A stretch of DNA of 64,000 bases from Sphingomonas sp. MMS24-J13 (GTDB taxonomy: Bacteria > Pseudomonadota > Alphaproteobacteria > Sphingomonadales > Sphingomonadaceae). The notes beneath the pieces were generated by a model that ran no database searches, was not told where the DNA came from, and worked only from the letters and a program-made list of their open reading frames with translations. Positions within the stretch are counted from its first letter, which is position 1, and every line of letters begins with the position of its first letter. This document shows, one piece after another, positions 3,394 to 40,617 of this stretch. The DNA lies in assembly GCF_044905095.1 (NCBI RefSeq), contig NZ_CP173258.1, forward strand, positions 2,931,277 to 2,995,276, written 5' to 3'. Both the position numbers and the translations under genes were made by a program.

Positions 3394-3396
3394 AAC

Positions 3397-3496
3397 GACC
3401 CGTCATTCCCGCGAAGGCGGGAGACGCGGTCCAGCGAAGCTAATCCATATTCTCAAAGGTTCGGAGTTTATGGATCCCGCCTCCGCGGGGATGACG
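3397..3496. repeat. Palindromic MITE/REP-like element, family A (TIR cgtcattcccgcg-aggcggga ... tcccgcct-cgcggg-atgacg, nested tccatat/atatgga)
   Basis: Nearly identical architecture and termini recur at 60258..60356. A half-copy lies at 35263..35293. It sits in a convergent intergenic gap. Confidence 0.7.
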
Positions 3497-3504
3497 TAGG
3501 AAAA

Positions 3505-5328: not shown

Positions 5329-5419
5329 AGCGACCCAATCGATGCCTATTGGTTAAGACGCGCCGGAGACTTACGCGCCCAGCCGCGTTGATGCCCCTGA
5401 AATCATCAGGAGCAACACC

Positions 5420-15081: not shown

Positions 15082-16725
15082 TTAGCCGATCACCTTCGTA
15101 TCGCCCCGCCACGCTAGTCGCGCGCCCGCACGATCCGCCCGCGCCGCCTGTTTCCTGCCCAACGCATCCTCCGCCTTCGCCCGGATCGCAAGCGCGACCG
15201 CATCGCGCGGGCGACGCTTCAACGATGCATCGGCCGCCGTGACCGCATCGCCCGCCTTGCCGCTTGCGAGCAAGGCGGCGGCGACGTCGCGGCGGACCGG
15301 ATACCACCAGATCGGCGGATCGGTCGCATCGGCGAAGGTCTTTGATTCCTCGATCGACGCGGCCTTTGCGAAGAGCTTCGCGGCGTCGACCGGCTTGTTC
15401 TGCAGCATCGCCGCACGTCCCTCGAGCACCAGCTTGGCGAGCTTGAACAATTTGGGGGCGGCCCCGCCCGTCGGATCGGGGTCGAGCGTCTCCGGCATCG
15501 CCTTCGCCTCGGCCAGCACGCCAGCGACATTGCCGGCGCGCGCGAACATCTCGCCGCGCGCATAACGCCAGAAGGCCTGCGCCGGACCATTATCCTTGCC
15601 CGGATCGGGGATGGCGAGCATTTCTTCGGCCGGCGCGTAGCGCGCGATCGCGATATAGGCGTCGCCGACGGCATGCTGGCTGTAGCGGTCGATCCTGGGC
15701 GTGCGCTTCGCCATCGCCACCACCGGCCGCGCCAGCCCGAGCGCGGCATTGCCGTCATCGGCCATCAGCGCGCCGGCGATCCCGAATACGACGTTGTGCC
15801 CGTAATAAGAGAGCGTCCAGCGCCCGTCGGGCTCGGCCAGCTTGAGCCGCTTCGCATTGTCGTCGCCGATCGCGACCGCATGGATGTTGGCCGTCGCCGC
15901 ATCCTCATAGCGCCCGATCCAGTAATAGGTATGCGAAGGCATGTGGACGAGGTGGCTCGCCGCCGGTGCGAGCGCCGCGAGCTTGTCCGCATAAGGCGTC
16001 GCGCGATCGGGATAGCCGCCCGCCTCGGTTGCATGGATGTAGAAATGGATCGCCGGCGTATAATCCGGATGACGCTTGAGCACGCCTTCGAGCAAAGCGA
16101 CCGGGCGAAGCATGCTCGCCGGCTTGTAATCGCTGTCGATCATCAACGCGTCGGCGGCGACGACGGCGATCTCGTCATCACCGGGCGATGCCGTGGCCAT
16201 CGCGTCCATCGCCTGCGCGAAGGCGTGATTGCCCTTGTCGTTGGTGTAACGCAGCCTGAGCGCGGCGATCAGAGCGCGCTCGTTCGGGGGTCCATCCTGC
16301 GCCAGTTTCTCGGCGGTGAGCGTGATCAGCGCGAGCTTCTCGCGGGCCTTGGCATCGATGCCGTAGTTGATCGTCGGCCCCGACGACCACGCTTCGCCCC
16401 ACGCGCACATCGCGCAATCGGGATCGAGCCGGCGTGCCTGCTGGAACGCCTCGATCGCGGCCTTGTGCGCGAAGGCGTGGGCAAGCTGCATGCCGTTGTC
16501 GAAGAAGGCCTGCGCCGTCGGATTCTTTGTCCGGATCGCGAAGCCACCGCCGCCATAGCCGGCGAGGATGCGCGGACTGCTGCCGGTGTCGACCGGATCG
16601 CCGCACCAATGCGGTGTGGCCGGGACAGGCGCTGGCGGTGGGGGCGGGGGCGCGCTGCCGAACAGGATCAGCATGGCGGGAATCAACAGTTTGCGCACGG
16701 GCGCCGCTCCAGAATCCGGGACCAT
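15082..16725 (-). CDS. Hypothetical secreted protein with TPR-like helical repeats
   Basis: Start refined to MVPDSG...LLIPAMLILFGSA signal peptide, followed by a Pro-rich linker. The remainder is helical-repeat-like. No specific family recognised. Confidence 0.45.
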   Translation of the reverse strand: MVPDSGAAPVRKLLIPAMLILFGSAPPPPPPAPVPATPHWCGDPVDTGSSPRILAGYGGGGFAIRTKNPTAQAFFDNGMQLAHAFAHKAAIEAFQQARRLDPDCAMCAWGEAWSSGPTINYGIDAKAREKLALITLTAEKLAQDGPPNERALIAALRLRYTNDKGNHAFAQAMDAMATASPGDDEIAVVAADALMIDSDYKPASMLRPVALLEGVLKRHPDYTPAIHFYIHATEAGGYPDRATPYADKLAALAPAASHLVHMPSHTYYWIGRYEDAATANIHAVAIGDDNAKRLKLAEPDGRWTLSYYGHNVVFGIAGALMADDGNAALGLARPVVAMAKRTPRIDRYSQHAVGDAYIAIARYAPAEEMLAIPDPGKDNGPAQAFWRYARGEMFARAGNVAGVLAEAKAMPETLDPDPTGGAAPKLFKLAKLVLEGRAAMLQNKPVDAAKLFAKAASIEESKTFADATDPPIWWYPVRRDVAAALLASGKAGDAVTAADASLKRRPRDAVALAIRAKAEDALGRKQAARADRAGARLAWRGDTKVIG

Positions 16726-16839
16726 CCATCTGCTCGCACGATCGGACAGCGAATGCGACGGGAATGTGCTTCGGCTCGCTGGCGGAACGAGCAGGGCTGC
16801 TCTATGCCGGTCGTTTCCTGCCCGAACGAGACTAAATCC

Positions 16840-18756
16840 ATGGCTTTGGTGAAGAAAACCGCGTTGGGAACCCGCAAGCGGGCCGTCGTCCCGGCCGAAG
16901 CGCCGGCAGCGGCCAAGCCGGCCCCGCGGCGCCCCGCCGCGGCGCCTGCGCGCGCGGCAACGGTGGTGCAGCGGATCGATCAGGCGACGCAGGAACTGGC
17001 GAGCGGGCTGGCCGAGGCGTCGGCAGCATCGACCGAGCTTCAGCAATCGATGGATCAGATCTCCAGCGGCGCGGAAGAAGCGGCGGGCGCCGCACAGGAA
17101 TTGTTGGGCGCGATCGCGGCGCTCGGTGCCGCTTTCCAGAAAGCGCGCGAGCGCGCCGAGGAATCGCGCCGCCAGTCCGAAACCGTGCAGGTCGCCTTCC
17201 AGGAGGCAAGCGTCCAGATCGACACGTCGGTCGCGGCGATCGAGCTCAATGCGCGCCGGCAGCTCGCCACGGTCGAAACCATCGACGCGCTCGAGGCGGC
17301 GGCGTCCGATATCGGCGAGATCGGCCAGGCGGTGGCGGACCTGTCCGAGCAGACCAGCCTGCTCGCGCTCAACGCGGCGATCGAGGCGGCGCGCGCCGGC
17401 GACAGCGGCTCCGCCTTCGCGGTGGTCGCCGACGAGGTGCGGGCGCTGGCCGAGACTTCCGAGGGCAATGCCGGCGATATCCAGCGGCTGTCAGCCAGCA
17501 TCGCCACCGAGGTTCGCGCCGTCGCCGATCGGGTGCGCGCGGCGGCGGCCACCGCCACGGCGGAGGCCGATGCCGGGCGCGGCGTCATCGCCCAGCTCGA
17601 GACCGGCCGCAGCGAACTCGCCGCGCTGGCGAGCGGCTCGCAGGAGATCCTGCTGACCGCGGTCGAGGCCGACGGCGCGGCGCGCGAGGCCCAGCGCGGC
17701 GCCGAGCAGGTGGCGAGCGCGGCGGAGGAGCAATCCGCCGCCGCGGCCGAGGCACAGCAGGCGATCACGCAGCAGAGCCTGTCGCTCGAGCAGAGCCAGC
17801 AGACCGCCGAGGAACTCGGCCGGCTGACCGGCGCGCTGGAGGACGAAGCCGCACGCCAGATGACCGCGCAGGAAGTGGCCGCGGCGGCCGAGGAATTGTC
17901 GGCGACCGTGCAGGAATTGTCGGGCGCTTCCAGCCAGATCCAAGTCGCGATCGAGCAGATCGGGCGCGGCGCCGAGATCCAGGCGGCCGCGACGCTCGAG
18001 GCGAACAGCGCGATGGCGCAGATCGAGAGGTCGGCGGCACTGGCGGAGGAACGGTCGAGCGAGGCGGCCGCGCGCATCGGGGGCGTCGTCGCCGGCGTGG
18101 CCGTCAGCCGTGAAACCGTGGGCCGGCTCGCCGCGGGGGTCGATACGGCTTTGGTCGAAACACGCGCCGTGCTCGGCCTGCTCGCCGGCCTCAACGAGAC
18201 CGGACGGCGGATCGAGAAGATCACCGACGGCCTCGCCTCGATCGCGTTGCAGACCAACATGCTCGCAGTCAGCGGATCGGTCGAGGCGACACGCGCCGCC
18301 GAAGCCGGAGTCGGCTTCGCTACGGTGGCTGGCGATATCCGCAAGCTTTCGCGCGAAGCCGCGCTCAATGCCGAGCGCGCCAGGGATGTCATCCGCGCGA
18401 TCCAGGATCAGGTGACCGCCGTCCGCCGCGATCTCGACCAGATCGTCGGCGCGGCCGAAGACGAGACCGCGCGCAACCGCGCGATGGTCGAGCGCTTCCG
18501 CATGATTGCGGCCGATCTCGACGCGGCGCAGGCGGCAAGCCGCGGTATTTCCGGCGATGCCGAGGCAATTCTGCGATCGGTGCGCGAGGTCAAGAGCGGG
18601 ACCGAGCAGATCGCGACCGCCGCCGACATCGCCTCCAGCGCCGCGCGGGAGGCCGCCAGCGCCGCCCGCCAGCAGGCGCAGGGGACCGAATTGCTCGCCG
18701 CCGCGATCGAGGAGATCGCATCGCTCGCCGAAGCGCTGGCGACGCAGGCCGCCTGA
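16840..18756 (+). CDS. Soluble methyl-accepting chemotaxis protein with two tandem signalling (MA) domains
   Basis: No TM segments. Canonical tip motif TSLLALNAAIEAARAGDSGSAFAVVADEVRALAE, and a second degenerate copy QTNMLAVSGSVEATRAAEAGVGFATVAGDIRKLS about 300 aa downstream. The 1027-aa ORF's N-terminal portion is antisense to the neighbouring gene. Confidence 0.8.
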   Translation: MALVKKTALGTRKRAVVPAEAPAAAKPAPRRPAAAPARAATVVQRIDQATQELASGLAEASAASTELQQSMDQISSGAEEAAGAAQELLGAIAALGAAFQKARERAEESRRQSETVQVAFQEASVQIDTSVAAIELNARRQLATVETIDALEAAASDIGEIGQAVADLSEQTSLLALNAAIEAARAGDSGSAFAVVADEVRALAETSEGNAGDIQRLSASIATEVRAVADRVRAAAATATAEADAGRGVIAQLETGRSELAALASGSQEILLTAVEADGAAREAQRGAEQVASAAEEQSAAAAEAQQAITQQSLSLEQSQQTAEELGRLTGALEDEAARQMTAQEVAAAAEELSATVQELSGASSQIQVAIEQIGRGAEIQAAATLEANSAMAQIERSAALAEERSSEAAARIGGVVAGVAVSRETVGRLAAGVDTALVETRAVLGLLAGLNETGRRIEKITDGLASIALQTNMLAVSGSVEATRAAEAGVGFATVAGDIRKLSREAALNAERARDVIRAIQDQVTAVRRDLDQIVGAAEDETARNRAMVERFRMIAADLDAAQAASRGISGDAEAILRSVREVKSGTEQIATAADIASSAAREAASAARQQAQGTELLAAAIEEIASLAEALATQAA

Positions 18757-18758
18757 GC

Positions 18759-20141
18759 ATGGCACGCGCCGCCAAGCCCGATACGGAGCGCGTGCTCGCC
18801 TTCCGCGTGGGAGACGAGCGGTTCGGCTTGCCGGCCGCGATCGTGCGTGAAGTGGCGCGGATACCGCGCGTGACGCGGGTGCCGCATGCGCCCGCCAGCC
18901 TGATCGGGCTCGGCAATTTTCGCGGAGCGGTGCTGCCGATCGTGTCCTTCGCCAAGCTGGCCGATCGTACGGCGCACGACGAGCGGCGCGTGATCCTGCT
19001 CGACACGACCAGCCCGCTCGCGCTCGCCGTCGACGAGGTGACGGCACTTGGCGAGGACGAGCGGGTCCAGCGCATCGACATCGGCACGCTTACCGCGCGC
19101 GATTTCGCCGGCGGCAACCGCAAGGCGCGGGTCGCCGCCAAGAGCGTCGAGGCAGACGCGACGGAGGCCGAAGGCGTCGTCACGCTCGTCGCATTTGCCG
19201 TCGCCGGGCAAGATTATGCGCTACCGGTCACGGCGGTGCAGGAGGTGCTGCGGCTGCCCGCCGGTATCGCGTTGCTGCCACATGCCGATGCGGTCGTGGT
19301 GGGATCGGTCGCGGTGCGCGATGCACTGCTGCCGTTATTGTCGCTTCAGGCGCTGCTGGGGTTGCCGGGCGAGCACGATCACAGCCGCGCGCGGGTCGTG
19401 GTGGTGAAGATGGGCTCGCATCGTATCGGGCTGGTCGTCGATGCGATGCATGCGATCCTGCGTGTTTCCGAACACGATATCGATCCGGTGCCGGCGGTAC
19501 TGGCACGCGGCACGGCCGAAGCGCGCGTGCAGGCGATCTGTCGGCTGGACGAGGGCCGGCGGCTCGTCTCTGTGCTCGCGATCGAGCATCTCGTCCGCGA
19601 AGATCTCACCCAGCGCCTGCTGCAAGGAACCGAGGAAGCGATGGCCGGGCAAGACGCAAGCGAGCCAACCGAGCAGTTCTTGCTCTTCCGCGTCGGCGAG
19701 GAGGAGTTCGGTCTGCCGATCGGCGCGGTGGTCGAGGTGGCGCGCCCGCCGGCCAAATTGACCAAATTGCCCAAAGCGCCGGCCTTCGTGCAGGGGATCA
19801 TGAATTTGCGCGGTGCGGTGGTGCCGGTGATCGATCAGGCGCAACGCTTTGGCGCGGCGGCCGCAACCGGCGCGCGCCGACGAGTGATCGTCGTTCGCCT
19901 GGGTGCGTTACAGGCCGGGTTCGTGGTCGACTCGGTATCGGAGGTGATGCGGATTCCGGCGAGCGCACTCCGTCCGGCACCCGAGCTTGGCGGCGAGGAG
20001 ACGCGGGTCTTCGATCGCGTCGCCAATCTGGAAGAGGCCGGGCGGATGGTGCTGATCGTCAGCCCGCAGGAACTGCTCGATCGCGCCGAGCGTGCAATGC
20101 TGGCGAAGCTCAGCGGAAAGCTGCCGGCCACCGCACCGTGA
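18759..20141 (+). CDS. cheW: Triple-CheW-domain coupling protein
   Basis: Three consecutive CheW-like modules beginning at about residues 10, 150 and 305 (FRVGDERFGLP..., FAVAGQDYALP..., FRVGEEEFGLP...). Confidence 0.8.
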   Translation: MARAAKPDTERVLAFRVGDERFGLPAAIVREVARIPRVTRVPHAPASLIGLGNFRGAVLPIVSFAKLADRTAHDERRVILLDTTSPLALAVDEVTALGEDERVQRIDIGTLTARDFAGGNRKARVAAKSVEADATEAEGVVTLVAFAVAGQDYALPVTAVQEVLRLPAGIALLPHADAVVVGSVAVRDALLPLLSLQALLGLPGEHDHSRARVVVVKMGSHRIGLVVDAMHAILRVSEHDIDPVPAVLARGTAEARVQAICRLDEGRRLVSVLAIEHLVREDLTQRLLQGTEEAMAGQDASEPTEQFLLFRVGEEEFGLPIGAVVEVARPPAKLTKLPKAPAFVQGIMNLRGAVVPVIDQAQRFGAAAATGARRRVIVVRLGALQAGFVVDSVSEVMRIPASALRPAPELGGEETRVFDRVANLEEAGRMVLIVSPQELLDRAERAMLAKLSGKLPATAP

Positions 20142-21223
20142 TCCGCCTGCTTATCGTCGATGATTCGCCGCTGATGCGGAAGTTGCTGACCGATATCTTC
20201 GCCGCGGAAAGTGATTTCGAGGTGGGGGTGGCACGCAACGGGCCGGAGGCGCTTGCGGCTTTGCCGGTGTTCAAGCCCGATGTGATCACGCTCGATATCC
20301 ATATGCCCGAGATGGACGGCCTTGCCTGCCTCGATCGGATCATGGTCGAGCGGCCCTGCCCGGTGGTGATGATCTCCTCGCTCACTGCAGAAGGGGCCGA
20401 CGAGACGCTGGAGGCGATGGCGCTGGGCGCGGTCGATTTCGTCGCCAAGCCGCGCGGGCCGGTCTCGATCGAGATCGAGGCGATGACGTCCCTGCTGGTC
20501 GACAAGGTGCGTGCCGCCGCCCGCGCGCGGATATCGCGCGCGACGCGGCTGACCGAACGCGTCAGGTTGCGGACAACCAGGCCGCCCGCGCCGAAGCCGC
20601 GCCCGACCCGGCTTTCCCAGACGAACAAGCCCCGCGTTTCGGGCGGCGACGAGGGGCTGGTGCTGGTCGGCACCTCGACCGGCGGGCCGGCGGCACTGGA
20701 CGTGCTGCTCGGCCAGATCCCGGCCGATTTTCCGTGGCCGATCGTGATTGCGCAGCACATGCCGGCCAGCTTCACCGGGGCGCTCGCCCGCCGGCTCGAT
20801 CGCTTCTGCCCGCTCGTGATCGAGGAGGTGACCAGGCCCACACCCCTGATCGCCGGCCACGCCTATATCGGCCGCGGCGATGCCGACCTGCTGGTGACGC
20901 GGCGCAATGGCGCGCTTGCCGCTTTGCCGGCGCCGAGCGCACCCGAACTGCATTGGCATCCAAGCGTCGACCGGCTCGTGACCAGCGCGATGGATCATGT
21001 TGCACCCGAACGCCTGATCGGCGTGTTGATGACCGGCATGGGCGCGGACGGCGCCAAAGCGATGACGGCGCTGGCCGGTCGGGGAGGATTGACCATTGCG
21101 GAAGCTGAGGAAAGTGCGGTCGTGTGGGGCATGCCCGGATCGCTCGTCGCGATGGGCGGTGCCGATCATGTCGTGCCGCTCGACGCGATTGCGGGCCGTC
21201 TGATGAGCCTGATCCAACCGTGA
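20138..21223 (+). CDS. cheB: Chemotaxis response regulator protein-glutamate methylesterase CheB
   Basis: GTG start overlapping the cheW stop. REC domain (LIVDDSPLMRKLL...DIHMPEMDG) plus methylesterase domain (GTSTGGPAAL, IAQHMP). Confidence 0.9.
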   Translation: MIRLLIVDDSPLMRKLLTDIFAAESDFEVGVARNGPEALAALPVFKPDVITLDIHMPEMDGLACLDRIMVERPCPVVMISSLTAEGADETLEAMALGAVDFVAKPRGPVSIEIEAMTSLLVDKVRAAARARISRATRLTERVRLRTTRPPAPKPRPTRLSQTNKPRVSGGDEGLVLVGTSTGGPAALDVLLGQIPADFPWPIVIAQHMPASFTGALARRLDRFCPLVIEEVTRPTPLIAGHAYIGRGDADLLVTRRNGALAALPAPSAPELHWHPSVDRLVTSAMDHVAPERLIGVLMTGMGADGAKAMTALAGRGGLTIAEAEESAVVWGMPGSLVAMGGADHVVPLDAIAGRLMSLIQP

Positions 21224-22074
21224 GCGATGCGGGCGACGGCCCCAGAAGCGCGATACCCATATTGTCCGAAGACGAATTGGGCCGGGTTACCGAATTGATC
21301 TACCGCTGGACGGGGATGACCTTCGGCGAAACCAAGCGATATTATATCGAGCGGCGCGTTGCCGATCGCATCGCCGCCACGAAGACGGGCGATGCGCGCA
21401 CCTATCTCGCCTACCTCGCCAGCCACGCCGCCGAGCGCGAGACGTTGATCAACGCCTTCACCGTCAACGAAACCTATTTCTATCGCGAGGACCATCAGCT
21501 CGCCGCGCTTTCGAAGGAGATCCTGCCGCAGATCGTCGCGGACAAGCGCCCCGGCGATCTCGTCCGCATCTGGTCGATGCCATGCTCGACCGGGGACGAA
21601 GCCTATTCGATCGCGATCTGGCTGCTCGAACATTGGCCGCTGGTCGATGCCTACAATGTCGAAATCATGGGATCGGATATCGACACCACCGCGATCGAAC
21701 AGGCCAAGGCAGGGCGCTACGCCGCGCGCGCGCTGGCGCGGCTGCCGGCGGAGGTAGTCGAACGCTATTTCGAGGCGGAGCATCGTCATCGCCGCAAGAT
21801 CATCGACGATCTGCGCGAATCGGTGCATTTCACGCCCGCCAACCTGTTCGATCGATCGACGTTGGTGCCGCTCGGCAAGTTCGATGTCATCCTTTGCCGC
21901 AATATGCTGATCTATTTCGACGATGCATCGCGCCTGATCGCGGCGGAGCATCTGTTCGATTGCCTGCGCCCGCGCGGTTTCCTGCTGCTGGGGCATAGCG
22001 AATTGATGGCGCGGATCACCGATCGTTTCACGATGGTTCGCCTCGAGGATGCAATCGTCTATCGTCGCCCCTGA
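21220..22074 (+). CDS. cheR: Chemotaxis protein methyltransferase CheR
   Basis: GTG start overlapping the cheB stop. CheR N-terminal helical domain and SAM-dependent methyltransferase domain (IWSMPCSTGDEAYSIAI, VILCRNMLIYFD). Confidence 0.85.
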   Translation: MSDAGDGPRSAIPILSEDELGRVTELIYRWTGMTFGETKRYYIERRVADRIAATKTGDARTYLAYLASHAAERETLINAFTVNETYFYREDHQLAALSKEILPQIVADKRPGDLVRIWSMPCSTGDEAYSIAIWLLEHWPLVDAYNVEIMGSDIDTTAIEQAKAGRYAARALARLPAEVVERYFEAEHRHRRKIIDDLRESVHFTPANLFDRSTLVPLGKFDVILCRNMLIYFDDASRLIAAEHLFDCLRPRGFLLLGHSELMARITDRFTMVRLEDAIVYRRP

Positions 22075-23999
22075 TGGACGAACTGCTCGAGCAATTCCTG
22101 ATCGAAGGGCGCGACCTGGTGCTGCAAGGCCAGGCGGAGTTCGCCGTCCTGCTCGACGAACCGGCGAACGCACGCGCGATAGACGGTGCCTTCCGCGCAA
22201 TCCACACCCTCAAGGGATCGGTCGGCATCTTCGACATGCGCGCCGCCGAGCGCGTGCTTCACGCCGCCGAGACCCTGCTCGATCGCGCGCGTAAGGACCC
22301 GGCCGGATTGCCTGCAGATGCGGTACCGCGGCTCGTCGAGAGCCTCGACCAGATCGATCGCTGGATCGACGAACTCGAACGGGACGGCGCGATCGGCGCA
22401 GGCGCCGACGCGATCGCCGATCGACTGCTGGGCGACGTCGCGGTTCTCGCCGAAGCACCCGCAGGCGAAGCCACTGCGGCAGAAGCGGTTCCGCAATGGG
22501 CCGCCGATCTGGTCGCGCACGAGATCGACACGCTGGCGGGTGCCGACGCTCCGCTCGTCGCCTTCCGCTACACCCCCGATACCGACGCCTTTTTCCGCGG
22601 CGACGATCCGATCACCCTGATCTCGCAGGTCCCCGCGATCGCGGCGCTCGCCGTTTTGCCGTCCGGCGGCGCATGGCCTGACTCGGCGATGTTCGATCCC
22701 TTCGCCTGCACGATGGTGATCGAGGGCCTGTCCGGCGCGCCGATCGACGATTTGCGCGCGATATTCCGGCTCGTGCCCGATCAGGTCTCCTTGCATGCGA
22801 TCGAAGCAAGGAGCGTCGGCGTCGCGGACTCGGTGTCCACCAGCACGATCTTGCGGGTCGATGCCGCACGGGTGGACGCACTGGCGGATGAAGTGGGTGA
22901 ATTGTCGGTCGCGGCGAATGCCTTCTCGGCCATCGCGGAGCGTGCGGCGCGGATCGATCCTGCCCTCGCGCTGGCGATCCGCGCCGCGCAGGCCGATCTC
23001 GATCGGTCGATCGGTGCGGTCCATCGGTCGGTCACGGCGGTGCGGCTGGTGCCGCTCGGGCCCGCGCTGGCGCGCCTGCCGCGCCAGGTGCGGGAGATCG
23101 CGGCCGGGCTCGGCAAGCCGGTCGAATTCACCGTCAGCGGCGATCAGATCGAAGTCGACAAGCAGATCGCCGATGGCCTGTTCGAGCCGTTGCTCCATCT
23201 CGTCCGCAACGCGATCGACCATGGTATCGAGCCGGCGGAGGCTCGCGCCGCGGCGGGCAAGGCGGCGACCGGGCAGTTGTCGCTCCGGATCGCACGCGAC
23301 GGCGAGGACGTCGTCGTAACATTGGCCGACGACGGCGCCGGAATCGATCCGGCCCGCATCCGCGACGTCGCGATCCAACGGCGGCTGATCGATGCCGAGG
23401 CGGCGGCGCGACTGACCGACGCAGCGACGACCGCCCTGATCTTCGCGCCCGGTTTCTCGACCGCGGCGACGGTGAGCGGTGTATCCGGGCGCGGGGTCGG
23501 CATGGACGCGGTTCAGGCGGCGGTCGATCGCATGCGCGGCCGGATCGAAATCGATAGCCGGATCGGCGAGGGCACGCGGTTCGTGCTGCGGTTGCCCGCC
23601 AATGCGCTCACCACCCGGCTGCTGCTGGTCGAGATCGGGCAAGACCGCTACGCGGTGCCGTTCGATCAGATCGTCGAGACCGCCCGGGTGAGCCAGGACC
23701 GGCTGGTTCCGCTCGGCACCGGCACTGCCTGCGTGCTGCGCAATCGCACCGTGCCCGTGCTGAGCCTGGCCGAATTGCTCGGCGGGGCGGAGGCCCGATC
23801 CGATCCGGCACGGCTGCTCATCACCCACGCCAGCGGTGAGCCGGTAGCGCTGCGGGTCGACGGCTTCAGCGATCGGATCGATGCGATGGTGCGCCCGCCG
23901 ACCGGCCTGCTCGCGGGCGTACCGAGCGTGGCCGGCACGACGCTGACGGGCGATGGCGGCGTGCTGATCGTGCTCGACCTGCTGGAGCTGGTCGGATGA
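22074..23999 (+). CDS. cheA: Chemotaxis histidine kinase CheA
   Basis: Hpt domain with HTLKGS, dimerisation and HATPase_c (GRGVGMD) domains, C-terminal CheW-like P5 domain, and no receiver. Start overlaps the cheR stop. Confidence 0.9.
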   Translation: MDELLEQFLIEGRDLVLQGQAEFAVLLDEPANARAIDGAFRAIHTLKGSVGIFDMRAAERVLHAAETLLDRARKDPAGLPADAVPRLVESLDQIDRWIDELERDGAIGAGADAIADRLLGDVAVLAEAPAGEATAAEAVPQWAADLVAHEIDTLAGADAPLVAFRYTPDTDAFFRGDDPITLISQVPAIAALAVLPSGGAWPDSAMFDPFACTMVIEGLSGAPIDDLRAIFRLVPDQVSLHAIEARSVGVADSVSTSTILRVDAARVDALADEVGELSVAANAFSAIAERAARIDPALALAIRAAQADLDRSIGAVHRSVTAVRLVPLGPALARLPRQVREIAAGLGKPVEFTVSGDQIEVDKQIADGLFEPLLHLVRNAIDHGIEPAEARAAAGKAATGQLSLRIARDGEDVVVTLADDGAGIDPARIRDVAIQRRLIDAEAAARLTDAATTALIFAPGFSTAATVSGVSGRGVGMDAVQAAVDRMRGRIEIDSRIGEGTRFVLRLPANALTTRLLLVEIGQDRYAVPFDQIVETARVSQDRLVPLGTGTACVLRNRTVPVLSLAELLGGAEARSDPARLLITHASGEPVALRVDGFSDRIDAMVRPPTGLLAGVPSVAGTTLTGDGGVLIVLDLLELVG

Positions 24000-24259
24000 G
24001 CGTGGAAGTGGTTGGCGGCACGATCCGGATCATCGGCAATGCCACCGTTGCGGATGCAGAGCCGCTGCTGGTGGCATTGCAAGGCGATCCGGCCCGGCAT
24101 ATTGATCTTGGCCAGGCGGTACATCTTCACAGCGCCGTAATCCAGATCCTGCTCGCGCTGCGCCCGCGCATCATCGGCAACCCGGCCTATCCATTCTTCA
24201 ACGACTGTATTTTACCGCGCTTGATCGAAGCCAGTGTCCCGCATAGCCCGCCGGGCTAG
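23996..24259 (+). CDS. Small STAS-like protein (putative anti-sigma-antagonist fold), translationally coupled to cheA
   Basis: ATGA overlap with the cheA stop. 87 aa, beta-alpha pattern TIRIIGNATVADAEPLLVALQ reminiscent of STAS. Weak assignment. Confidence 0.4.
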   Translation: MSVEVVGGTIRIIGNATVADAEPLLVALQGDPARHIDLGQAVHLHSAVIQILLALRPRIIGNPAYPFFNDCILPRLIEASVPHSPPG

Positions 24260-24313
24260 ATATATTGTTCGAGCGGCGCGAAGGCGTCCTGAAAACTTGT
24301 TTGGAGTTGCCGG

Positions 24314-24697
24314 ATGGCGGTTACGGTTCTGATAGTCGACGATAGCAAGCTGGCACGCATCGTCGCCGGCAAGGCGCTGGCCGTCCTGCAACCCGAATGG
24401 CAGAAAGCCGAAGCCGGCAGCGCCGATCAGGCGATGGAGGTTCTTGCCGCGCAGGCGATCGATGTCGCCCTAATCGACTTCAACATGCCCGATCGCGACG
24501 GCCTCCAGCTTGCCGAGGAATTGCGCGCGCTTCGGCAGGATATGCCGATCGCGATCATCACCGCCAACATCCAGGACGAGGTTATCGCGCGCGCGCGCGC
24601 AGTCGGTGCCACCTTCGTCGCCAAACCGGTCACCGCGGATGGGCTGCATGGTTTTCTGTCGGGCGCAGCGCTGCGGCTGCGAGCCGTAAAGGGATGA
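24314..24697 (+). CDS. cheY: Single-domain CheY-like response regulator
   Basis: REC domain: LIVDDSKLAR, DFNMPDRDG, and a conserved Lys region. Confidence 0.8.
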   Translation: MAVTVLIVDDSKLARIVAGKALAVLQPEWQKAEAGSADQAMEVLAAQAIDVALIDFNMPDRDGLQLAEELRALRQDMPIAIITANIQDEVIARARAVGATFVAKPVTADGLHGFLSGAALRLRAVKG

Positions 24698-25332
24698 TTC
24701 CTGAGAGCATTGCGCTGGCCGAACTCGAGCGCGATGCGCTGACCGAGATCGTCAATATCGGCGTCAGCCGCGCCGCGTCCAACCTGCGCAAGATGATCGG
24801 CGGCGAGGTCTTGCTCTCGGTGCCGTCGATAGAGGTGGTGAGCCAGCGCCGCGCCGCGCGGCTGATCAGCGAACGAGAGGTGAGCGAGCTGATCGCCGTC
24901 CGTCAGAATTTCCAGGGCCCCTTCTCCGGCTGCGCGTTGCTGATCTTTCCCGAAACCAACAGCCTCGAACTGGTGCGCGCGGTGACGGGCGGCGAACTGA
25001 GCACGGCCGAACTGATCGAGATGGAGCATGAGGCGCTGGCGGAGACCGGGAATATCATCCTCAATTCGTGCCTCGCGACGATGGCGAACATGCTCAAGCG
25101 ATCGCTGACGATGACCTTGCCAGAAGTCATTCGCGGATCCGGCTCGACCCTGTTCGACGTCAACGAGAGCACGACGGCGGACGGGCTCGTGCTGTTCCTC
25201 TATATCGATTTCGCCGTCCGCAAGCATGACATTCGTGGGTATATAGCGATGATCATGGACCTGCCCTCGCTCACCACGCTCAAGGAATTGCTGGGCGAAT
25301 TCATCGAGCGCATCGTCGGCAGCGATGGCTGA
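24694..25332 (+). CDS. cheC: CheC-family CheY-P phosphatase
   Basis: Two CheC active-site-like segments (DALTEIVNIGVSRAASNL and EALAETGNIILNSCLATMANML). ATGA overlap with the cheY stop. Confidence 0.7.
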   Translation: MIPESIALAELERDALTEIVNIGVSRAASNLRKMIGGEVLLSVPSIEVVSQRRAARLISEREVSELIAVRQNFQGPFSGCALLIFPETNSLELVRAVTGGELSTAELIEMEHEALAETGNIILNSCLATMANMLKRSLTMTLPEVIRGSGSTLFDVNESTTADGLVLFLYIDFAVRKHDIRGYIAMIMDLPSLTTLKELLGEFIERIVGSDG

Positions 25333-27313
25333 TCTCAGTCCGGCAAGCAGCAACGACCAGATCCGCGCGATCCTCGCGGCGGCAGGGGCGAGCGGCACCT
25401 GGGACTGGGATATCAAAAGCGGCACCGTCTGCGTCGATGCGCGCTTCGCCGACCTTTATGGCCTGGCCGAGGATGAGGCCGGCATCCCATTGCCGACGCG
25501 GACCTTTTTCAAGGCGATCCACCCCGACGATCAGGCGCGGATCCGGATCGCCGTCGCAGGCATGACTGCGGGCGCAGAGCACTTTTCCAAGGAATTCCGT
25601 GTGGTTACGTCCGAAGGCGTAATCCTGTGGGTCCACGGGCGGGGCCAGACCCATTTCGACGAGGCCGACCAGCCCGATCATTTCACCGGGCTGCTGGTCG
25701 ACGTCACCGAACGTAAACGCACCGAGGAACGCCTGCGCATTGCGCAGAGCGCCGGCGGGGTCGGCACCTTCGAATATTCCGACGGCTTCGCCACGGCGAC
25801 CGTCTCGTCAGAGTTCTGCCGGTTGCTCGGCCTGCACCCCGCCCGGATCCTGCCGGTCCGCACGATCAATGCGGTGCTGAAATCGGGCGAACAGGGCCTG
25901 TTGATTCCCGACTCGCACCGCGGGGATCCGCCCGCTACGCTCGACGCGACCTTTTGCGTCATGCGGAACGACGATGGCGCGCAACGCTGGATCGCACGGC
26001 GCGGCGAGATCATGCGCGATGGCGACGGCGGCTACCGCCTGATCGGCGTGATCTACGACGTTACGGCCTCCAAGGCGCAGGAAGCCGCTCTGGTCGAGCT
26101 CAACGAGACGCTCGAGACACGGATCGAAACCGCGATCGCCGATCGCCAGCAGGCGGAGGATGCGCTGCGTCAGGCGCAGAAGATGGAGGCGGTCGGCAAC
26201 CTCACCGGCGGCATCGCACACGATTTCAACAATCTGCTGACGATCATCATCGGCAATATCGACACGGTCTCGCGCCGGCTGAGCGCCGATTCCGAAGCCG
26301 ATCCCCGCGCGCGGCGCGCACTGGAAAATGCGCTGAAGGGTGCCGAGCGCGCCGCTGCGCTGACGCAGCGCCTCCTCGCTTTCTCGCGCCGCCAGCCGCT
26401 GGCACCCAAGGCGATCGACGTCGCGCGTTTGCTGGCGGGCATGTCCGATCTGCTGACCCGATCGATCACCGAGACGATCGCGATCCAGATGCTGGCGCCT
26501 TCGGATCTGTGGACGGTCGAAGCCGATCCCAACCAGCTCGAAAATGTCATCCTCAACCTCGCGGTGAATGCGAGGGACGCGATGCCCGACGGTGGACAGC
26601 TAACGATCGAGGCCAGGAACGTCACGATCGGTGCCGGCCAGCTCCGCGACGTGCCCGCCGGCGCCTATGTCGTCGTTTCAGTCTGCGACAACGGCATGGG
26701 GATGGCGCCCGAAACCGTCGCGAAGGTGTTCGATCCCTTCTTCACCACCAAGGAGGTTGGCAAAGGTACCGGGCTCGGACTGTCGATGGTCTATGGCTTC
26801 GCCAAGCAATCGGGCGGGCATATCCACATCGAGTCCGCACTGGGCGCCGGTACGACGATGTCGCTTTATCTGCCGCGCCAGCACGGCACCGAAGATCCGA
26901 TCGAGCTGGAGACTGCTACGGCCGAGCCGGGGCATCATTCCGAAACGGTGCTGGTTGTCGAGGATGACGAGGACGTGCGCGCCTATACGGCCGGCATACT
27001 GCGCGAGCTCGGCTACCGCGTGATCGAGGCCTATGACGGCGCCTCGGCGCTTCGGACCCTGGAGCGTGCCGATCAGCCGATCCATCTGCTCCTGACCGAC
27101 GTGGTGATGCCCAACATGTCGGGCAGCGAACTCGCCGATGCTGCCCGGCGCCTCCGATCCGACCTGAGGGTGCTCTTCATCTCCGGCTACACCCGCGACG
27201 CGATCGTCCGGGACGGCCGGCTGGAGCCCGGCGTCGATCTGCTCTCCAAGCCCTTCACCTACACGACATTGTCGAAGAAGTTGCGCGACGTGTTGGATCG
27301 AGAGACCGACTGA
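25325..27313 (+). CDS. PAS-containing hybrid sensor histidine kinase / response regulator
   Basis: Two PAS-like regions, HisKA (IAHDFNNLLTII), HATPase_c (GTGLGLSMV), and a C-terminal REC (LLLTDVVMPNMSG). 8-nt overlap with cheC. Confidence 0.85.
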   Translation: MADLSPASSNDQIRAILAAAGASGTWDWDIKSGTVCVDARFADLYGLAEDEAGIPLPTRTFFKAIHPDDQARIRIAVAGMTAGAEHFSKEFRVVTSEGVILWVHGRGQTHFDEADQPDHFTGLLVDVTERKRTEERLRIAQSAGGVGTFEYSDGFATATVSSEFCRLLGLHPARILPVRTINAVLKSGEQGLLIPDSHRGDPPATLDATFCVMRNDDGAQRWIARRGEIMRDGDGGYRLIGVIYDVTASKAQEAALVELNETLETRIETAIADRQQAEDALRQAQKMEAVGNLTGGIAHDFNNLLTIIIGNIDTVSRRLSADSEADPRARRALENALKGAERAAALTQRLLAFSRRQPLAPKAIDVARLLAGMSDLLTRSITETIAIQMLAPSDLWTVEADPNQLENVILNLAVNARDAMPDGGQLTIEARNVTIGAGQLRDVPAGAYVVVSVCDNGMGMAPETVAKVFDPFFTTKEVGKGTGLGLSMVYGFAKQSGGHIHIESALGAGTTMSLYLPRQHGTEDPIELETATAEPGHHSETVLVVEDDEDVRAYTAGILRELGYRVIEAYDGASALRTLERADQPIHLLLTDVVMPNMSGSELADAARRLRSDLRVLFISGYTRDAIVRDGRLEPGVDLLSKPFTYTTLSKKLRDVLDRETD

Positions 27314-27361: not shown

Positions 27362-27412
27362 CTGTCATGCGATTCGCTTAACCAAAAGCGAAAGCGACAT
27401 GACAGGGGCTGA
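27362..27412. promoter_or_regulatory. Imperfect ~50-bp palindrome (ctgtcatgcgattcgctt...aagcgaaagcgacatgacag) spanning the annotated pit start codon
   Basis: Inverted repeat visible directly. It contains a CTGTCAT Pho-box-like half-site and overlaps ATG 27399, so the true start may be ATG 27417 or later. Confidence 0.35.
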
Positions 27413-29021
27413 TTTAATGAACGCGACTATTGCCATGTCTCCGCGGGCGACCCGCCCGGAGATGGACAAGGGGTTGGGCAAGGCCGGAATGCTGGGCTTC
27501 GGCGCAGCGGTGATCGCGGCGATCCTGTACGTGGCGTACAGCGTCTATATCGATGCGAGCGCGGCCGGCGTGCATGCCTCGGCCTATCTGCCCTTCTTCC
27601 TGCTGTTCGTGGCGCTGCTGATCGCGCTCGGCTTCGAGTTCGTGAACGGCTTTCACGACACCGCCAATGCCGTCGCGACGGTGATCTACACCAACGCGCT
27701 GCCGGCCAATGTCGCGGTCGTGTGGTCGGGCTTCTTCAACTTCCTCGGCGTGCTGCTCTCCACTGGCGCGGTCGCGTTCGGCATCGTCTCGCTGCTGCCG
27801 GTCGAGCTGATCCTGCAGGTCGGCTCGCATGCCGGCTTCGCGATGGTGTTCGCCTTGCTGATCGCGGCGATCCTGTGGAACCTCGCCACCTGGTGGCTCG
27901 GTATCCCTTCCTCCAGCTCGCACACATTGATCGGGTCGATCATCGGTGTCGGCGTCGCCAACGCGCTGCTGCACGGCAAAAGCGGCACGGCGGGCGTCGA
28001 CTGGGGCAAGGCCACCGAAATCGGCCAGGCGCTTCTGCTTTCCCCGCTCGTCGGCTTCGGCCTCGCCGCGCTCTTGTTCATCGCGATGAAACTGCTCGTC
28101 AAACGGCAGGACCTTTACAGCGAGCCCAAGGACGGCCTGCCCCCGCCGCTGTGGATCCGCGCTTTGCTGATCTTCACCTGCACCGGCGTGAGCTTCGCGC
28201 ACGGATCGAACGACGGGCAGAAGGGCATGGGCCTGATCATGCTGATCCTGATCGGCACCGTGCCCACCGCTTATGCGCTCAACCGCGCCGTGCCCGAGAA
28301 ATATGCCGTCGAATTCCACATGAATTCGGCCGCCGCCGCCAGCGCGCTGGGCCAGACTCCGCCCGCCGGCGAAACCGCCGCCGAGGCGCGCAGGCAGGTG
28401 ACCACCTATATCGCCGACAAGCATTTCGCGCCGGCGACCCTCCCCGCATTGTCGGTGCTGATCGGCGACGTCGACAAGCAGGTGCGCGAATATGGCTCGC
28501 TCGCGAACGTTCCGCAGGCCGCGGTCAACAACATGCGCAACGACATGTATCTCGCCTCCGAGGCGATCAAGCGCCTGGGCAAGGACAAAGCCGCGAACCT
28601 GTCGGACGCGAGCATCAAGTCGCTCAATACCTACAAGAAGTCGCTCGATGCAGCGACGCGCTTCATCCCGACCTGGGTCAAGATCGCGGTCGCCTTCGCG
28701 CTCGGCCTCGGCACGATGGTCGGCTGGAAGCGGATCGTCGTCACCGTCGGCGAGAAGATCGGCAAGACCCACCTCACCTATGCGCAGGGCGTGTCGGCCG
28801 AGCTGGTGGCGATGGGCACGATCTTCGCTGCCGACAATCTCGGCCTGCCGGTCTCGACCACCCATGTGCTGTCGTCGGGTGTCGCGGGTACGATGGCCGC
28901 CAACGGTTCGGGGCTGCAGATGAGCACGTTGCGCAACATGCTGATGGCGTGGGTGCTGACCCTGCCCGTCTCGATCGTGCTGGCGGGCGTGCTTTACACG
29001 GTGTTCTCGCAAATCTTCTGA
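27399..29021 (+). CDS. pit: Inorganic phosphate transporter, PiT family (long form with large central loop)
   Basis: GFHDTANAVATVIYT and C-terminal repeat GSNDGQKGMGLI signatures. ~130-aa hydrophilic loop in the middle. Start uncertain (27399 / 27417 / 27489). Confidence 0.8.
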   Translation: MTGADLMNATIAMSPRATRPEMDKGLGKAGMLGFGAAVIAAILYVAYSVYIDASAAGVHASAYLPFFLLFVALLIALGFEFVNGFHDTANAVATVIYTNALPANVAVVWSGFFNFLGVLLSTGAVAFGIVSLLPVELILQVGSHAGFAMVFALLIAAILWNLATWWLGIPSSSSHTLIGSIIGVGVANALLHGKSGTAGVDWGKATEIGQALLLSPLVGFGLAALLFIAMKLLVKRQDLYSEPKDGLPPPLWIRALLIFTCTGVSFAHGSNDGQKGMGLIMLILIGTVPTAYALNRAVPEKYAVEFHMNSAAAASALGQTPPAGETAAEARRQVTTYIADKHFAPATLPALSVLIGDVDKQVREYGSLANVPQAAVNNMRNDMYLASEAIKRLGKDKAANLSDASIKSLNTYKKSLDAATRFIPTWVKIAVAFALGLGTMVGWKRIVVTVGEKIGKTHLTYAQGVSAELVAMGTIFAADNLGLPVSTTHVLSSGVAGTMAANGSGLQMSTLRNMLMAWVLTLPVSIVLAGVLYTVFSQIF

Positions 29022-29106
29022 GCGAAGCCGCAACGTTAAAGTTCGGCCCCGCGCCCGAACCGGGCGCGGGGCCGAATTCATTTTGGCGCCACCGTCCCAC
29101 CAAAGC

Positions 29107-29198
29107 GTCGCCCCTGCGAAGGCAGGGGCCCATGTCTCTCGTTACCAGCGGCATCGTCTGTGGATGGAGAGATCGGCCCCTGCCTTCGCAGGGGCGAC
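29107..29198. repeat. Palindromic MITE-like element, family B, second copy
   Basis: TIRs gtcgcccctgcgaaggcaggggccc / ggcccctgccttcgcaggggcgac match the copy at 14982..15073. Six-frame ORFs over both copies give the same MGPCLRRGD peptide. Confidence 0.7.
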
Positions 29199-29248
29199 GG
29201 ACGAGGACTGGGGAGGACCGGTTTAGCCGCCGACTCGGCAGGCCCGGA

Positions 29249-30175
29249 TCAATACCGATCGGGCACGTACATCTCGTCCGGCACCGGATGACGGATATAA
29301 TCGTCGCGCCGTTCGCGATCGGGCAGGATCACCGCCGGCTTCGGAACCTCCTCATACGGAATCTGATCGAGCAGGTGGGCGATGCAATTCAGCCGCGCGC
29401 GCTTCTTGTCGACCGCCTCGACCAGCCACCACGGCGCCTCGGGGATGTGCGTGCGTTCCAGCATCGCTTCCTTGGCGCGAGTATAATCTTCCCAGCGGCG
29501 GCGCGATTCCACGTCCATCGGCGAGAGTTTCCACTGCTTGAGCGGATCGTGGATGCGCATGTTGAAGCGGAACTGCTGTTCCTCGTCGGTGATCGAGAAC
29601 CAATATTTGATCAGGATGATGCCCGAGCGGACCAGCATCCGTTCGAACTCAGGCACCGAGCGGAAAAACTCCTCGACATCGTCGTCGTTGCAGAAGCCCA
29701 TGACCCGCTCGACCCCGGCACGATTGTACCAGCTGCGATCGAACAGCACGATCTCGCCCGCCGCGGGCAGATGCGTGGCGTAACGCTGGAAATACCACTG
29801 AGTGCGCTCGCGCTCGTTGGGCGCGGGCAACGCCGCGACCCGGCAGACACGCGGGTTGAGCCGCTGGGTGATCCGCTTGATCGCGCCGCCCTTGCCGGCG
29901 GAATCGCGGCCTTCGAAGATCACGACGACCTTGAGGCCCTTGTGCTGGACCCAGTCCTGCAGCCGGACGAGCTCGTGCTGGAGGCGGAACAGCTCGCGGA
30001 AGTAGGTGCGGCGGGGAAGCTGGTCATGCTCCGGCTGATCGGCGAGGTCGCCCGCCAGTTCGTCGAGGCGGGCCTCGTCGAGTTCCATCTCGAGTTCCTC
30101 GTCGAAGCTGTCGGTGATCTCCTGCTTGATCCGGTCCATGTCGAATGCGGGGTGCGGCTCTAACGACAGGGTCAT
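29249..30175 (-). CDS. ppk2: Polyphosphate kinase 2 (PPK2, polyphosphate:nucleotide phosphotransferase)
   Basis: Walker A FEGRDSAGKGG and PPK2 motif DRSWYNRAGVERVMGF. Start refined to MTLSLEP (30175). Confidence 0.85.
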   Translation of the reverse strand: MTLSLEPHPAFDMDRIKQEITDSFDEELEMELDEARLDELAGDLADQPEHDQLPRRTYFRELFRLQHELVRLQDWVQHKGLKVVVIFEGRDSAGKGGAIKRITQRLNPRVCRVAALPAPNERERTQWYFQRYATHLPAAGEIVLFDRSWYNRAGVERVMGFCNDDDVEEFFRSVPEFERMLVRSGIILIKYWFSITDEEQQFRFNMRIHDPLKQWKLSPMDVESRRRWEDYTRAKEAMLERTHIPEAPWWLVEAVDKKRARLNCIAHLLDQIPYEEVPKPAVILPDRERRDDYIRHPVPDEMYVPDRY

Positions 30176-30241
30176 GGGCAATGCTTTCGGCTGATGGATA
30201 GGGTCAAGGCATCGCACCGGGCTGTGACACTATTCTGACGC

Positions 30242-34792: not shown

Positions 34793-35224
34793 TCAGCCCC
34801 CCGGCTTCATCTGCTGCATCATCGTGCGCAACTGGGCCAGTTCGGCCTTGTCGACGAAGTTGTCATGGTCGGCATCGGCGCGATCGAACAGCAACGGCGG
34901 CGCGGCGGCCAGCTCGGCCCTGGTGACCTTGCCGTCATGATCGCTGTCCATCGCCGCGATCATCGCGTCGATCCGGGCAGCGGCCTGCGGGCGGAACTTG
35001 AGGATCCGCGTGAAATCGAGGCGACTGATGACGCCATCGCCGTTGCGATCCAGGCGCGCAAAATCGGCGGCGCGGGCGGCGATGAACTCGGCGCGGCTGA
35101 TCCGGCCGTCATGATCGGTATCGGCCTTGTCGAGCATCGCGGCGGGATCGCGACCCGGCATCCGCGCCGAGGCGGGGATCGCGACGAGCGTTGCGGCAGC
35201 GGTGGCTAGGAGAAAGGTACGCAT
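34793..35224 (-). CDS. Secreted EF-hand calcium-binding protein (four EF-hand loops)
   Basis: Signal peptide, then DTDHDGRISRAEF, DRNGDGVISRLDF, DSDHDGKVTRAEL and DADHDNFVDKAEL loops. Confidence 0.7.
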   Translation of the reverse strand: MRTFLLATAAATLVAIPASARMPGRDPAAMLDKADTDHDGRISRAEFIAARAADFARLDRNGDGVISRLDFTRILKFRPQAAARIDAMIAAMDSDHDGKVTRAELAAAPPLLFDRADADHDNFVDKAELAQLRTMMQQMKPGG

Positions 35225-35262
35225 GGATTGTCCTTGATATCGGGACCGCACGTCTGACCTTA

Positions 35263-35293
35263 CCCGTCATCACCGCCTTCGCGGGAATGACGG
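35263..35293. repeat. Degenerate half-copy/hairpin of family A repeat (cccgtcatcaccgccttcgcgggaatgacgg)
   Basis: Shares the gtcat...gcgggaatgacg termini with elements at 3397 and 60258. Confidence 0.45.
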
Positions 35294-37935: not shown

Positions 37936-38166
37936 CGTTTCGCTGCCAGGTGATTCTCTATTTTCCTGCCTTATGAGACGTTTCGCAGGATCTCGCGAGC
38001 GCTTCCCCTCCTATCGCGCAAAGAAATATAAACGATCGTTAACCAGCTAAGTCTGCCATTTCGCCATTGTATCCTGCGAGAGGCCAATGCCTTCGAAACG
38101 CATCCCTTTGACATCGGTAAACGTAGTTTTTAGGCTTTTGCGCTGAGTGGTTCGCAAACCGCGAAC

Positions 38167-39933: not shown

Positions 39934-40014
39934 CATCGATAAATCGTTTTTTCCATGAACTCTGGCGCCCATAGCGGCGTTGTCGCGCCTCTATTCTCTC
40001 AACTCAGGTGATCG

Positions 40015-40587: not shown

Positions 40588-40590
40588 ACC

Positions 40591-40611
40591 CCCTCCCCGC
40601 CGGGGAGAGGG
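40591..40611. terminator. Bidirectional terminator hairpin ccctccccgccggggagaggg
   Basis: GC stem between convergent stops 40587 and 40618. Confidence 0.6.
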
Positions 40612-40617
40612 AATCTT

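Follow-up and report, generated by a model that had tools for sequence, protein, structure and literature searches.

We analyzed a run of nine consecutive plus-strand genes (16840-27313) in a 64,000-nucleotide (nt) stretch of DNA from Sphingomonas sp. MMS24-J13 (contig NZ_CP173258.1, positions 2,931,277 to 2,995,276), hereafter called the window, in whose numbering all coordinates are given. Pfam and NCBIfam assignments place in this run the parts of a chemosensory pathway, and we regard it with high confidence, as to both its class and its list of parts, as a complete operon of the F9 class, in an alphaproteobacterial subtype arranged DosM-CheW3-CheB-CheR-CheA-STAS-CheY-CheC/X and followed by a PAS hybrid kinase. 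A previous reading made from the letters of the DNA (the sequence-only reading) had proposed one tightly coupled nine-gene chemosensory operon at this position, which agrees with the gene content and with the seven tight junctions described below. The features of the operon, with protein lengths in amino acids (aa), are as follows.

16726..16839, no strand: intergenic, presumed promoter region, between the ATG of the divergent gene (16725, minus strand) and the dosM start.
16840..18756, plus strand: DosM-type receptor, 638 aa; Pfam MCPsignal in 2-4 stretches; 64% identity over 594 aa to WP_069710031.1 of Novosphingobium resinovorum.
16969..17826, plus strand: DosM signalling domain 1, residues 44-329, by self-alignment; tip IEAARAGDSGSAFAVVADEV at about residues 181-200, nt 17380-17439.
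17869..18726, plus strand: DosM signalling domain 2, residues 344-629, by self-alignment; tip VEATRAAEAGVGFATVAGDI at about residues 481-500, nt 18280-18339.
18759..20141, plus strand: CheW3, three concatenated CheW domains, 460 aa; Pfam CheW in three stretches (E=2.3e-79, 264 bits).
20138..21223, plus strand: CheB methylesterase with N-terminal receiver; Pfam Response_reg and CheB_methylest.
21220..22074, plus strand: CheR methyltransferase, 284 aa; Pfam CheR_N and CheR.
22074..23999, plus strand: CheA with P1 Hpt, P3 dimerisation, P4 HATPase and P5 CheW-like domains; Pfam.
23996..24259, plus strand: small protein of predicted STAS fold, 87 aa, from homologues and modelling; ATGA overlap with the cheA stop.
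24260..24313, no strand: sole real intergenic gap of the operon (54 nt), from the sequence; 48 nt in the N. resinovorum counterpart.
24314..24697, plus strand: single-domain CheY-like response regulator, 127 aa; Pfam Response_reg; 77% identical to its orthologue.
24694..25332, plus strand: CheC/CheX-family CheY-P phosphatase (CheC/X), 212 aa; Pfam CheC and CheX.
25325..27313, plus strand: soluble PAS-HisKA-HATPase-REC hybrid histidine kinase; Pfam and NCBIfam; 8-nt overlap of its start with the cheC/X stop.

Read from the sequence, the junctions are, in gene order, +2, -4, -4, -1, -4, +54, -4, and -8 nt. Seven of the eight are tight and the remaining one is 54 nt, so that the earlier count of eight tight junctions and a ninth of 54 nt was a miscount, nine genes having eight junctions. 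The 5' limit had likewise been set at 16726, where there is no start codon; this is the first base past the divergent gene, whose ATG lies at 16725 on the minus strand. The most likely dosM start is ATG 16840, because the alignment with the N. resinovorum orthologue, WP_069710031.1, which is itself a published DosM, then begins at residue 1 of the window receptor. Both cheB and cheR have GTG starts that overlap the preceding stop codon (of cheW3 and cheB, respectively) by 4 nt, and the cheR start is supported by its 283-aa orthologue, which has the same overlap. The junctions of the orthologous N. resinovorum operon measure +2, -4, -4, -1, -4, +48, -4, and +2 nt, and since this pattern is nearly repeated there, and the overlap of the STAS-like open reading frame (ORF) with cheA in 68 of 80 related loci, the tightness goes beyond chance. 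A GC-rich 6-bp hairpin, TAGCCCGCCGGGCTA, at 24244-24258 straddles the stop codon of the STAS-like ORF and has no proper T-tract; it could reduce the expression of cheY, cheC/X, and the kinase gene relative to cheA. Consensus scans found neither a sigma-70-like site in 16726-16839 nor a terminator 3' of the hybrid kinase gene, terminator-like sites being no commoner than in the shuffled expectation. By hydropathy, none of the nine proteins has a transmembrane (TM)-like segment.

Judged from its sequence, the receptor is of the DosM architecture. A 43-residue Ala/Pro/Arg-rich N-terminal tail precedes tandem MCP signalling domains, the two halves of the protein (residues 44-329 and 344-629) forming an ungapped self-alignment of 286 residues with 28% identity (E=1e-32), and each half carries a hairpin-tip motif of its own (EAARAGDSGSAFAVVADEVR and EATRAAEAGVGFATVAGDIR). 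The tip of domain 1 aligns with that of TM1143 from Thermotoga maritima, a receptor of heptad class 44H, the class in which F9 receptors are listed. EE/QE motifs typical of methylation sites are present at residues 292-301 and 347-356, among others. No sensor domain was detected, MCPsignal being the sole Pfam family matched at E≤10, and a maximum Kyte-Doolittle hydropathy over 19 residues of 1.41 gives no TM segment. The sequence-only reading had seen a soluble MCP that senses an intracellular cue. Hydropathy agrees that it is soluble, but a sensor-less protein with two signalling domains is not an ordinary MCP, and the intracellular cue is doubtful given that the receptor has no sensory domain and that DosM is treated as a structural scaffold (PMC9321776); TM and sensory domains are lacking in 98% of DosM homologues (PMC9321776).

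The second gene encodes three CheW domains in one chain and is 49% identical to WP_083274891.1, a published CheW3 of N. resinovorum. DosM with tandem signalling domains and the triple CheW are architectures unique to F9, and these two proteins define the class across 2,781 genomes (Mo et al., PMC9321776). In cluster I of Vibrio cholerae, DosM (VC1403) and the triple CheW (VC1402) build a double-layered, purely cytoplasmic array (Ortega et al., PMC7534058). The gene order also speaks for F9. The order [DosMW3BRA.YX] is tabulated as F9 for Sphingomonas panacis, N. resinovorum, Sphingobium barthaii, Methylobacterium terrae, and Nitrospirillum amazonense (S6 table, PMC9321776), and the window matches it, including the unnamed gene between A and Y. 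Finally, a locus on plasmid pSA2 of N. resinovorum has the same nine colinear genes, with 44-82% protein identity to those of the window, and bears the DosM and CheW3 accessions of the published F9 table. The F9 class is preferred to ACF (alternative cellular function), Wsp, or Che3 because of the DosM and CheW3 signature, the published gene order, and the orthology to a published F9 cluster.

The triple CheW, CheB, CheR, and CheA of the sequence-only reading were all recovered with Pfam and NCBIfam. CheB scored 355 bits against an NCBIfam CheB subfamily with a cut-off of 293. CheA is 55% identical to the CheA of the N. resinovorum F9 cluster; Pfam assigned to it Hpt, H-kinase_dim, HATPase_c, and CheW only, with no receiver domain, and no domain to residues 98-257. 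The calls of a CheY, a CheC phosphatase, and a PAS hybrid kinase were likewise upheld by Pfam, and the latter two genes are conserved in N. resinovorum and in 51 of 75 related loci. CheY scored 43 bits against the NCBIfam CheY model, which has a cut-off of 189, and by this measure is no close match to the motor-binding CheY models. CheC/X exceeds the Pfam cut-offs for both CheX (41 bits) and CheC (34 bits), and the NCBIfam CheC model aligns to its residues 8-199. The phosphatase motif of this family, [D/S]-x3-E-x2-N-x22-P, occurs twice in CheC and once in CheX. Site 1 of the window protein (D14x3E18x2N21x22P44) fits this motif exactly, while site 2 (E113x3E117x2N120x22P143) has a Glu at the first position. 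The protein is 82% identical to an N. resinovorum protein annotated as "CheX". The hybrid kinase, which is 54% identical to its N. resinovorum counterpart, has a PAS domain at residues 37-122, HisKA at 291-357 (H-box AHDFNN, H299), HATPase at 401-519, and REC at 542-653; a second PAS-like region, judged by eye and having no domain-search match, is probable.

The 87-aa ORF itself gave no match in Pfam (E≤10), in NCBIfam, or among PDB sequences. A word-indexed protein search gave five close relatives, which seeded an exhaustive profile search; at E≤1e-3 the five-homologue profile matched 545 of 1.84 billion cluster representatives, and nearly all of the 545 are 75-120 aa long. One match, P0007, a Thr/Ser-rich repetitive adhesin-like protein of 4165 aa, was rejected as a false positive, because its E=1e-32 is a summed-score artefact of 24 weak repeat matches. 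PF13466 (STAS_2) was matched at E≤0.1 by 35 of 73 scanned family members, the best at 1.9e-6, and an AlphaFold2 model built from the alignment had a predicted local distance difference test (pLDDT) score of 90.4 and the beta-alpha fold of STAS domains, nearest to RsbV and SpoIIAA. From the PF13466 matches of its homologues and this confident model, the ORF is STAS-like in its predicted fold, as the sequence-only reading had it; a STAS domain search thus fails with the ORF itself and succeeds with its homologues. His45 and Gln50 are invariant in all 73 family sequences, whereas position 46, which was matched to Ser58 of SpoIIAA by inspection, is Thr in 29, Ala in 16, Ser in 12, and Met in 6. 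The databases mostly label the family "hypothetical protein".

Genomes were scanned with a family profile from a 17-sequence alignment, which gave 80 loci that were annotated against the nine proteins of the window. The STAS ORF directly follows cheA in all 80, with a 4- or 1-nt overlap with the cheA stop in 68. Among loci with upstream flank, two tips were present in 56 of 63 receptor ORFs, and 55 of 58 CheW ORFs had three CheW domains; in both sets the exceptions include split or contig-truncated ORFs. In the sampled loci the family is tied to F9 clusters. Downstream content was counted in the 75 loci whose downstream flank reaches 3.5 kb or more, where CheC/X and a homologue of the hybrid kinase follow in 51, a receiver and an MCP (Vibrio-type) in 13, CheX only in 6, and other genes in 5. 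In two CheX-only loci that were inspected (L008 and L026) the operon stops after CheX. The loci in which a kinase follows CheX come from Acetobacteraceae, Microvirga, Xanthobacter, Steroidobacteraceae, and Burkholderiales. Because gammaproteobacterial clusters of the Vibrio-type order carry the family as well, the "." that follows A in F9 orders of the literature very probably stands for the STAS ORF. The unnamed gene between cheB and cheR of other F9 clusters was also considered as a member and rejected, each locus having one profile match only.

Siccirubricoccus sp. G192 has two whole-cluster copies on one contig, at 38-58 kb (L019) and 278-297 kb (L020), with identical STAS-profile scores and with cheA split into two ORFs in both, which suggests that the cluster was duplicated recently and is perhaps decaying or mis-assembled. 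In L030, L059, and L074 (plus strand) and in L071 (minus strand) a second CheC/X-like gene lies directly 3' of the hybrid kinase gene. The N. resinovorum locus (L081, NZ_CP017077.1, 700483-710936) lies on pSA2, a 961-kb conjugative (MOBF/MPF_F) megaplasmid, and the pair of STAS ORF and cheA was found on four more plasmids, of a second Novosphingobium record, Rhizobium, Azospirillum, and Sphaerotilus. These plasmid occurrences fit earlier reports that F9 has spread horizontally.

On the model of V. cholerae cluster I, dimers of DosM would be rods whose two ends are signalling tips, and the tips would dock into baseplates built from CheA and CheW3, so that a flat array of two layers, free of any membrane, would form in the cytoplasm. 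CheR and CheB would methylate and demethylate the receptor helices. Because DosM has no sensor, the input would come from elsewhere, with another soluble receptor encoded outside the operon or an accessory protein as candidates. CheA would phosphorylate the single-domain CheY and CheB, and the two-site CheC/X would dephosphorylate CheY-P. The STAS protein, whose synthesis would keep pace with that of CheA, may bind CheA and tune which receiver it serves, in the manner of CheS, SpoIIAA, and RsbV; this binding is proposed because translational coupling of the ORF to cheA holds regardless of the genes that come next. The STAS proteins SpoIIAA and RsbV bind GHKL kinases. The hybrid kinase may trade phosphate with this circuit, by serving CheY as a further phosphodonor or by acting as a receiver under the control of CheA. 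The roles so proposed for the STAS protein and the hybrid kinase, drawn from analogy, are tentative. Both directions of phosphate flow are known from Che3 of Rhodospirillum centenum, where phosphate passes from CheA3 to the receiver of CheS3 and from the kinase to CheY (PMC3868531).

A deletion of the F9 cheA of V. cholerae gave no detectable phenotype under standard conditions (PMC7534058); this species forms its arrays when starved or at low oxygen (PMC7534058, PMC9321776). Che2 of R. centenum governs flagellar biosynthesis, not taxis (PMC2890560, PMC7184735). The output of the window system is probably not the moment-to-moment steering of flagella. The sequence-only reading had suspected something other than ordinary chemotaxis, which is plausible since known F9 phenotypes are non-chemotactic, although the class it named does not hold. 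It had also set against its own view a CheA of flagellar (F) class whose deletion causes loss of motility; the cluster is F-class by architecture, and class names do not predict function (PMC7184735). An F9 system with flagellar biosynthesis or motility as its output, as in R. centenum Che2, is a rather unlikely alternative. The sole F9 system with a phenotype controls the biosynthesis of lateral flagella (PMC2890560, PMC7184735), and flagellar genes are present in 97% of the species that bear F9 (PMC9321776). However, some genomes that were scored as flagella-less carry F9 clusters too, namely those of Sphingomonas panacis, Stella humosa, and Kosmotoga pacifica, the R. centenum cluster has another order (B.RYA), for which neither CheX nor a hybrid kinase is listed (PMC9321776), and the V. 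cholerae deletion argues against such an output as well. In place of the flagellar motor, a phosphorelay of CheY, CheC/X, and kinase could be the real output, or second input, in a large subfamily of F9 found in many proteobacterial groups, with the STAS protein as a universal, unnamed core part of F9 systems, a CheS-like partner of CheA with a site formed by His45 and Gln50; taken together, this is a possibility that we hold at well under even odds.

The STAS protein could instead act by partner switching, as a classical anti-sigma-factor antagonist, and so connect the array to a sigma factor, as the STAS genes of ancestral F7 clusters apparently do. Its predicted fold is nearest to RsbV and SpoIIAA, stage-1 F7 clusters carry anti-sigma antagonists together with a serine phosphatase (PMC7184735), and partner switching has also been floated for CheS (PMC12654446), but neither the operon nor its relatives encode an anti-sigma kinase, a PP2C phosphatase, or a sigma factor, the phospho-serine position is not conserved, and the ORF is coupled by translation to cheA in 68 of 80 loci. 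We therefore consider this role improbable. For a STAS protein that acts on CheA there is a precedent in CheS of Sinorhizobium meliloti, which consists of a STAS domain only, binds CheA, and biases it between CheYs (PMC12654446).

It is still less probable that the PAS hybrid kinase is a mere neighbouring two-component gene outside the chemosensory pathway. The kinase is not counted in the published F9 gene orders (PMC9321776), six loci have CheX and then no kinase, and an MCP holds the kinase slot in 13 loci. Against this, the kinase gene and cheC/X share 8 nt, a kinase follows CheX in the majority of loci with sufficient flank (51 of 75) across several families and genera, and it has been kept in the plasmid-borne copy of N. 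resinovorum. The PAS region of the kinase was also compared with the MCPs in the same slot of Vibrio-type clusters, and the idea that they are related was dropped, no similarity being found.

In Wsp systems, WspE is a CheA fused to a receiver domain, and the cluster encodes WspR, a REC-GGDEF output protein. The sequence-only reading had assigned the operon to such an ACF, Wsp, or Che3 pathway governing development, exopolysaccharide (EPS), or cyclic di-GMP, and this we consider highly unlikely: a PAS hybrid kinase-receiver in the cluster recalls CstS3/CheS3 of R. centenum Che3 (PMC2890560, PMC3868531), GGDEF genes and a pair for polysaccharide export and a family 2 glycosyltransferase (GT2) are present elsewhere in the window (1-5352 and 38134-39348), and no flagellar genes are nearby, but the DosM and CheW3 signature is reported from F9 only (PMC9321776), orthologous clusters are published as F9, the nine genes encode by Pfam and NCBIfam a CheA with no receiver domain and no REC-GGDEF, DNA-binding, or other effector or enzymatic output, and the GGDEF and EPS genes lie more than 10 kb from the operon and are absent at the N. 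resinovorum locus.

Several points weigh against the F9 reading and the model built on it. The class rests on signature parts, gene order, and orthology rather than on a CheA phylogeny or MiST models, and each DosM domain is about 286-300 residues long, with small gaps where the receptor is aligned to TM1143 of class 44H. The array is modelled on V. cholerae, while sphingomonad F9 systems are known from genes alone. In V. cholerae, only alternate trimers of dimers are made of DosM, so that the array requires a second receptor (PMC7534058), and the window operon encodes none. With the phospho-serine position of SpoIIAA not kept, classical partner-switching chemistry is unlikely for the STAS protein, its binding partner is a guess, and its likeness to CheS is one of description only, cheS lying in F5-type motility operons upstream of cheY1 and cheA, whereas the window STAS ORF follows cheA. 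Finally, the six loci with CheX and no kinase mean that the kinase is frequent and not obligatory.

As a rule for reading similar loci, a soluble MCP that adjoins a triple CheW points to F9, with a cytoplasmic array scaffolded by DosM, and not to Wsp or Che3. The operon itself is a further example of a catalogued F9 system. What goes beyond the published gene-order tables is the predicted STAS identity of the small ORF and its linkage to cheA, and the recurrent ending of CheC/X and hybrid kinase. Both are testable handles on F9 function, in culturable soil bacteria. If the STAS protein is indeed a core part and the circuit a phosphorelay, work on the role of F9 arrays, a question of long standing, would gain a concrete starting point.

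No flagellar or further che genes were found elsewhere in the 64-kb window. The gene upstream of the operon is divergent, as stated in the sequence-only reading, which had called its product secreted and TPR-like.

15082-16725, minus strand: divergent upstream gene, about 547 aa, ATG at 16725; N-terminal hydrophobic stretch and after it a run of prolines, LILFGSAPPPPPPAP.

The N-terminus is hydrophobic, while the likeness to TPR proteins comes only from weak NCBIfam matches (MamA, SctY), with no Pfam family matched. This gene is placed outside the system because it is not conserved beside the N. resinovorum operon. Downstream, at 27399-30229, a PiT/PHO4 phosphate transporter gene starts 85 nt past the kinase gene on the same strand and is followed by a convergent gene for a PPK2 polyphosphate kinase; both are probably unrelated neighbours, as they too are not conserved beside the N. 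resinovorum operon, though the transporter gene may be co-transcribed with the operon. The regions 1-5352 and 38134-39348 encode a Wza-like polysaccharide export protein, a GT2 glycosyltransferase, a HAMP-GAF-GGDEF protein, and a second GGDEF protein, and nothing ties these distant genes to the operon. The region 40000-46500 has a G+C content of 61-62%, compared with about 65-70% elsewhere, and encodes a hemerythrin, an iron-containing redox enzyme (Haem_oxygenas_2), a Crp-like regulator, a SnoaL-like protein, and a Ros/MucR regulator; this stretch is perhaps an acquired islet or a regulatory one. In addition, a small protein with several EF-hand calcium-binding motifs is encoded at 34793-35266 (minus strand), beside a fatty-acid hydroxylase, and a 723-aa protein with three SnoaL_4 domains at 47850-50021 (minus strand).

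Among known systems, V. cholerae cluster I (DosM VC1403, CheW3 VC1402, and CheA VC1397) shares with the window the sensor-less double receptor, the triple CheW, CheB, CheR, CheA, and CheY. Its order, [DosMW3B.RYA.YM], has an unnamed small gene directly after cheA, as in the window. The Vibrio type differs in having an extra small gene between cheB and cheR and a CheY between cheR and cheA, and it ends with a CheY and an MCP, whereas in the window cheB and cheR overlap, there is a single CheY, and the operon ends with CheC/X and the PAS hybrid kinase and has no second receptor gene. The N. resinovorum SA1 copy lies on the conjugative megaplasmid pSA2 and the window copy on a 4.99-Mb contig, presumably the chromosome, and the flanking genes are unlike; for N. 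resinovorum and S. panacis the published F9 table leaves the small ORF unnamed and the hybrid kinase unlisted. Che2 of R. centenum, also F9, has the order DosMW3B.RYA and is listed without CheX or hybrid kinase (PMC9321776); its CheA is fused to a receiver domain, unlike that of the window, and its output is not chemotaxis (PMC2890560). Like the window operon, R. centenum Che3 has a PAS hybrid kinase-receiver and a single-domain CheY, but it is an ACF system whose CheA3 carries a receiver domain (PMC3868531), with two single-domain CheWs and an ordinary MCP, and it has no DosM, CheW3, STAS ORF, or CheC/X, all of which are present in the window. Compared with the 87 aa of the window ORF, SpoIIAA and RsbV are about 110-120 aa long, and in place of their phospho-serine the window family has the invariant His45 and Gln50. 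CheS of S. meliloti and Agrobacterium is, like the product of the window ORF, a small STAS-only protein of a che operon.

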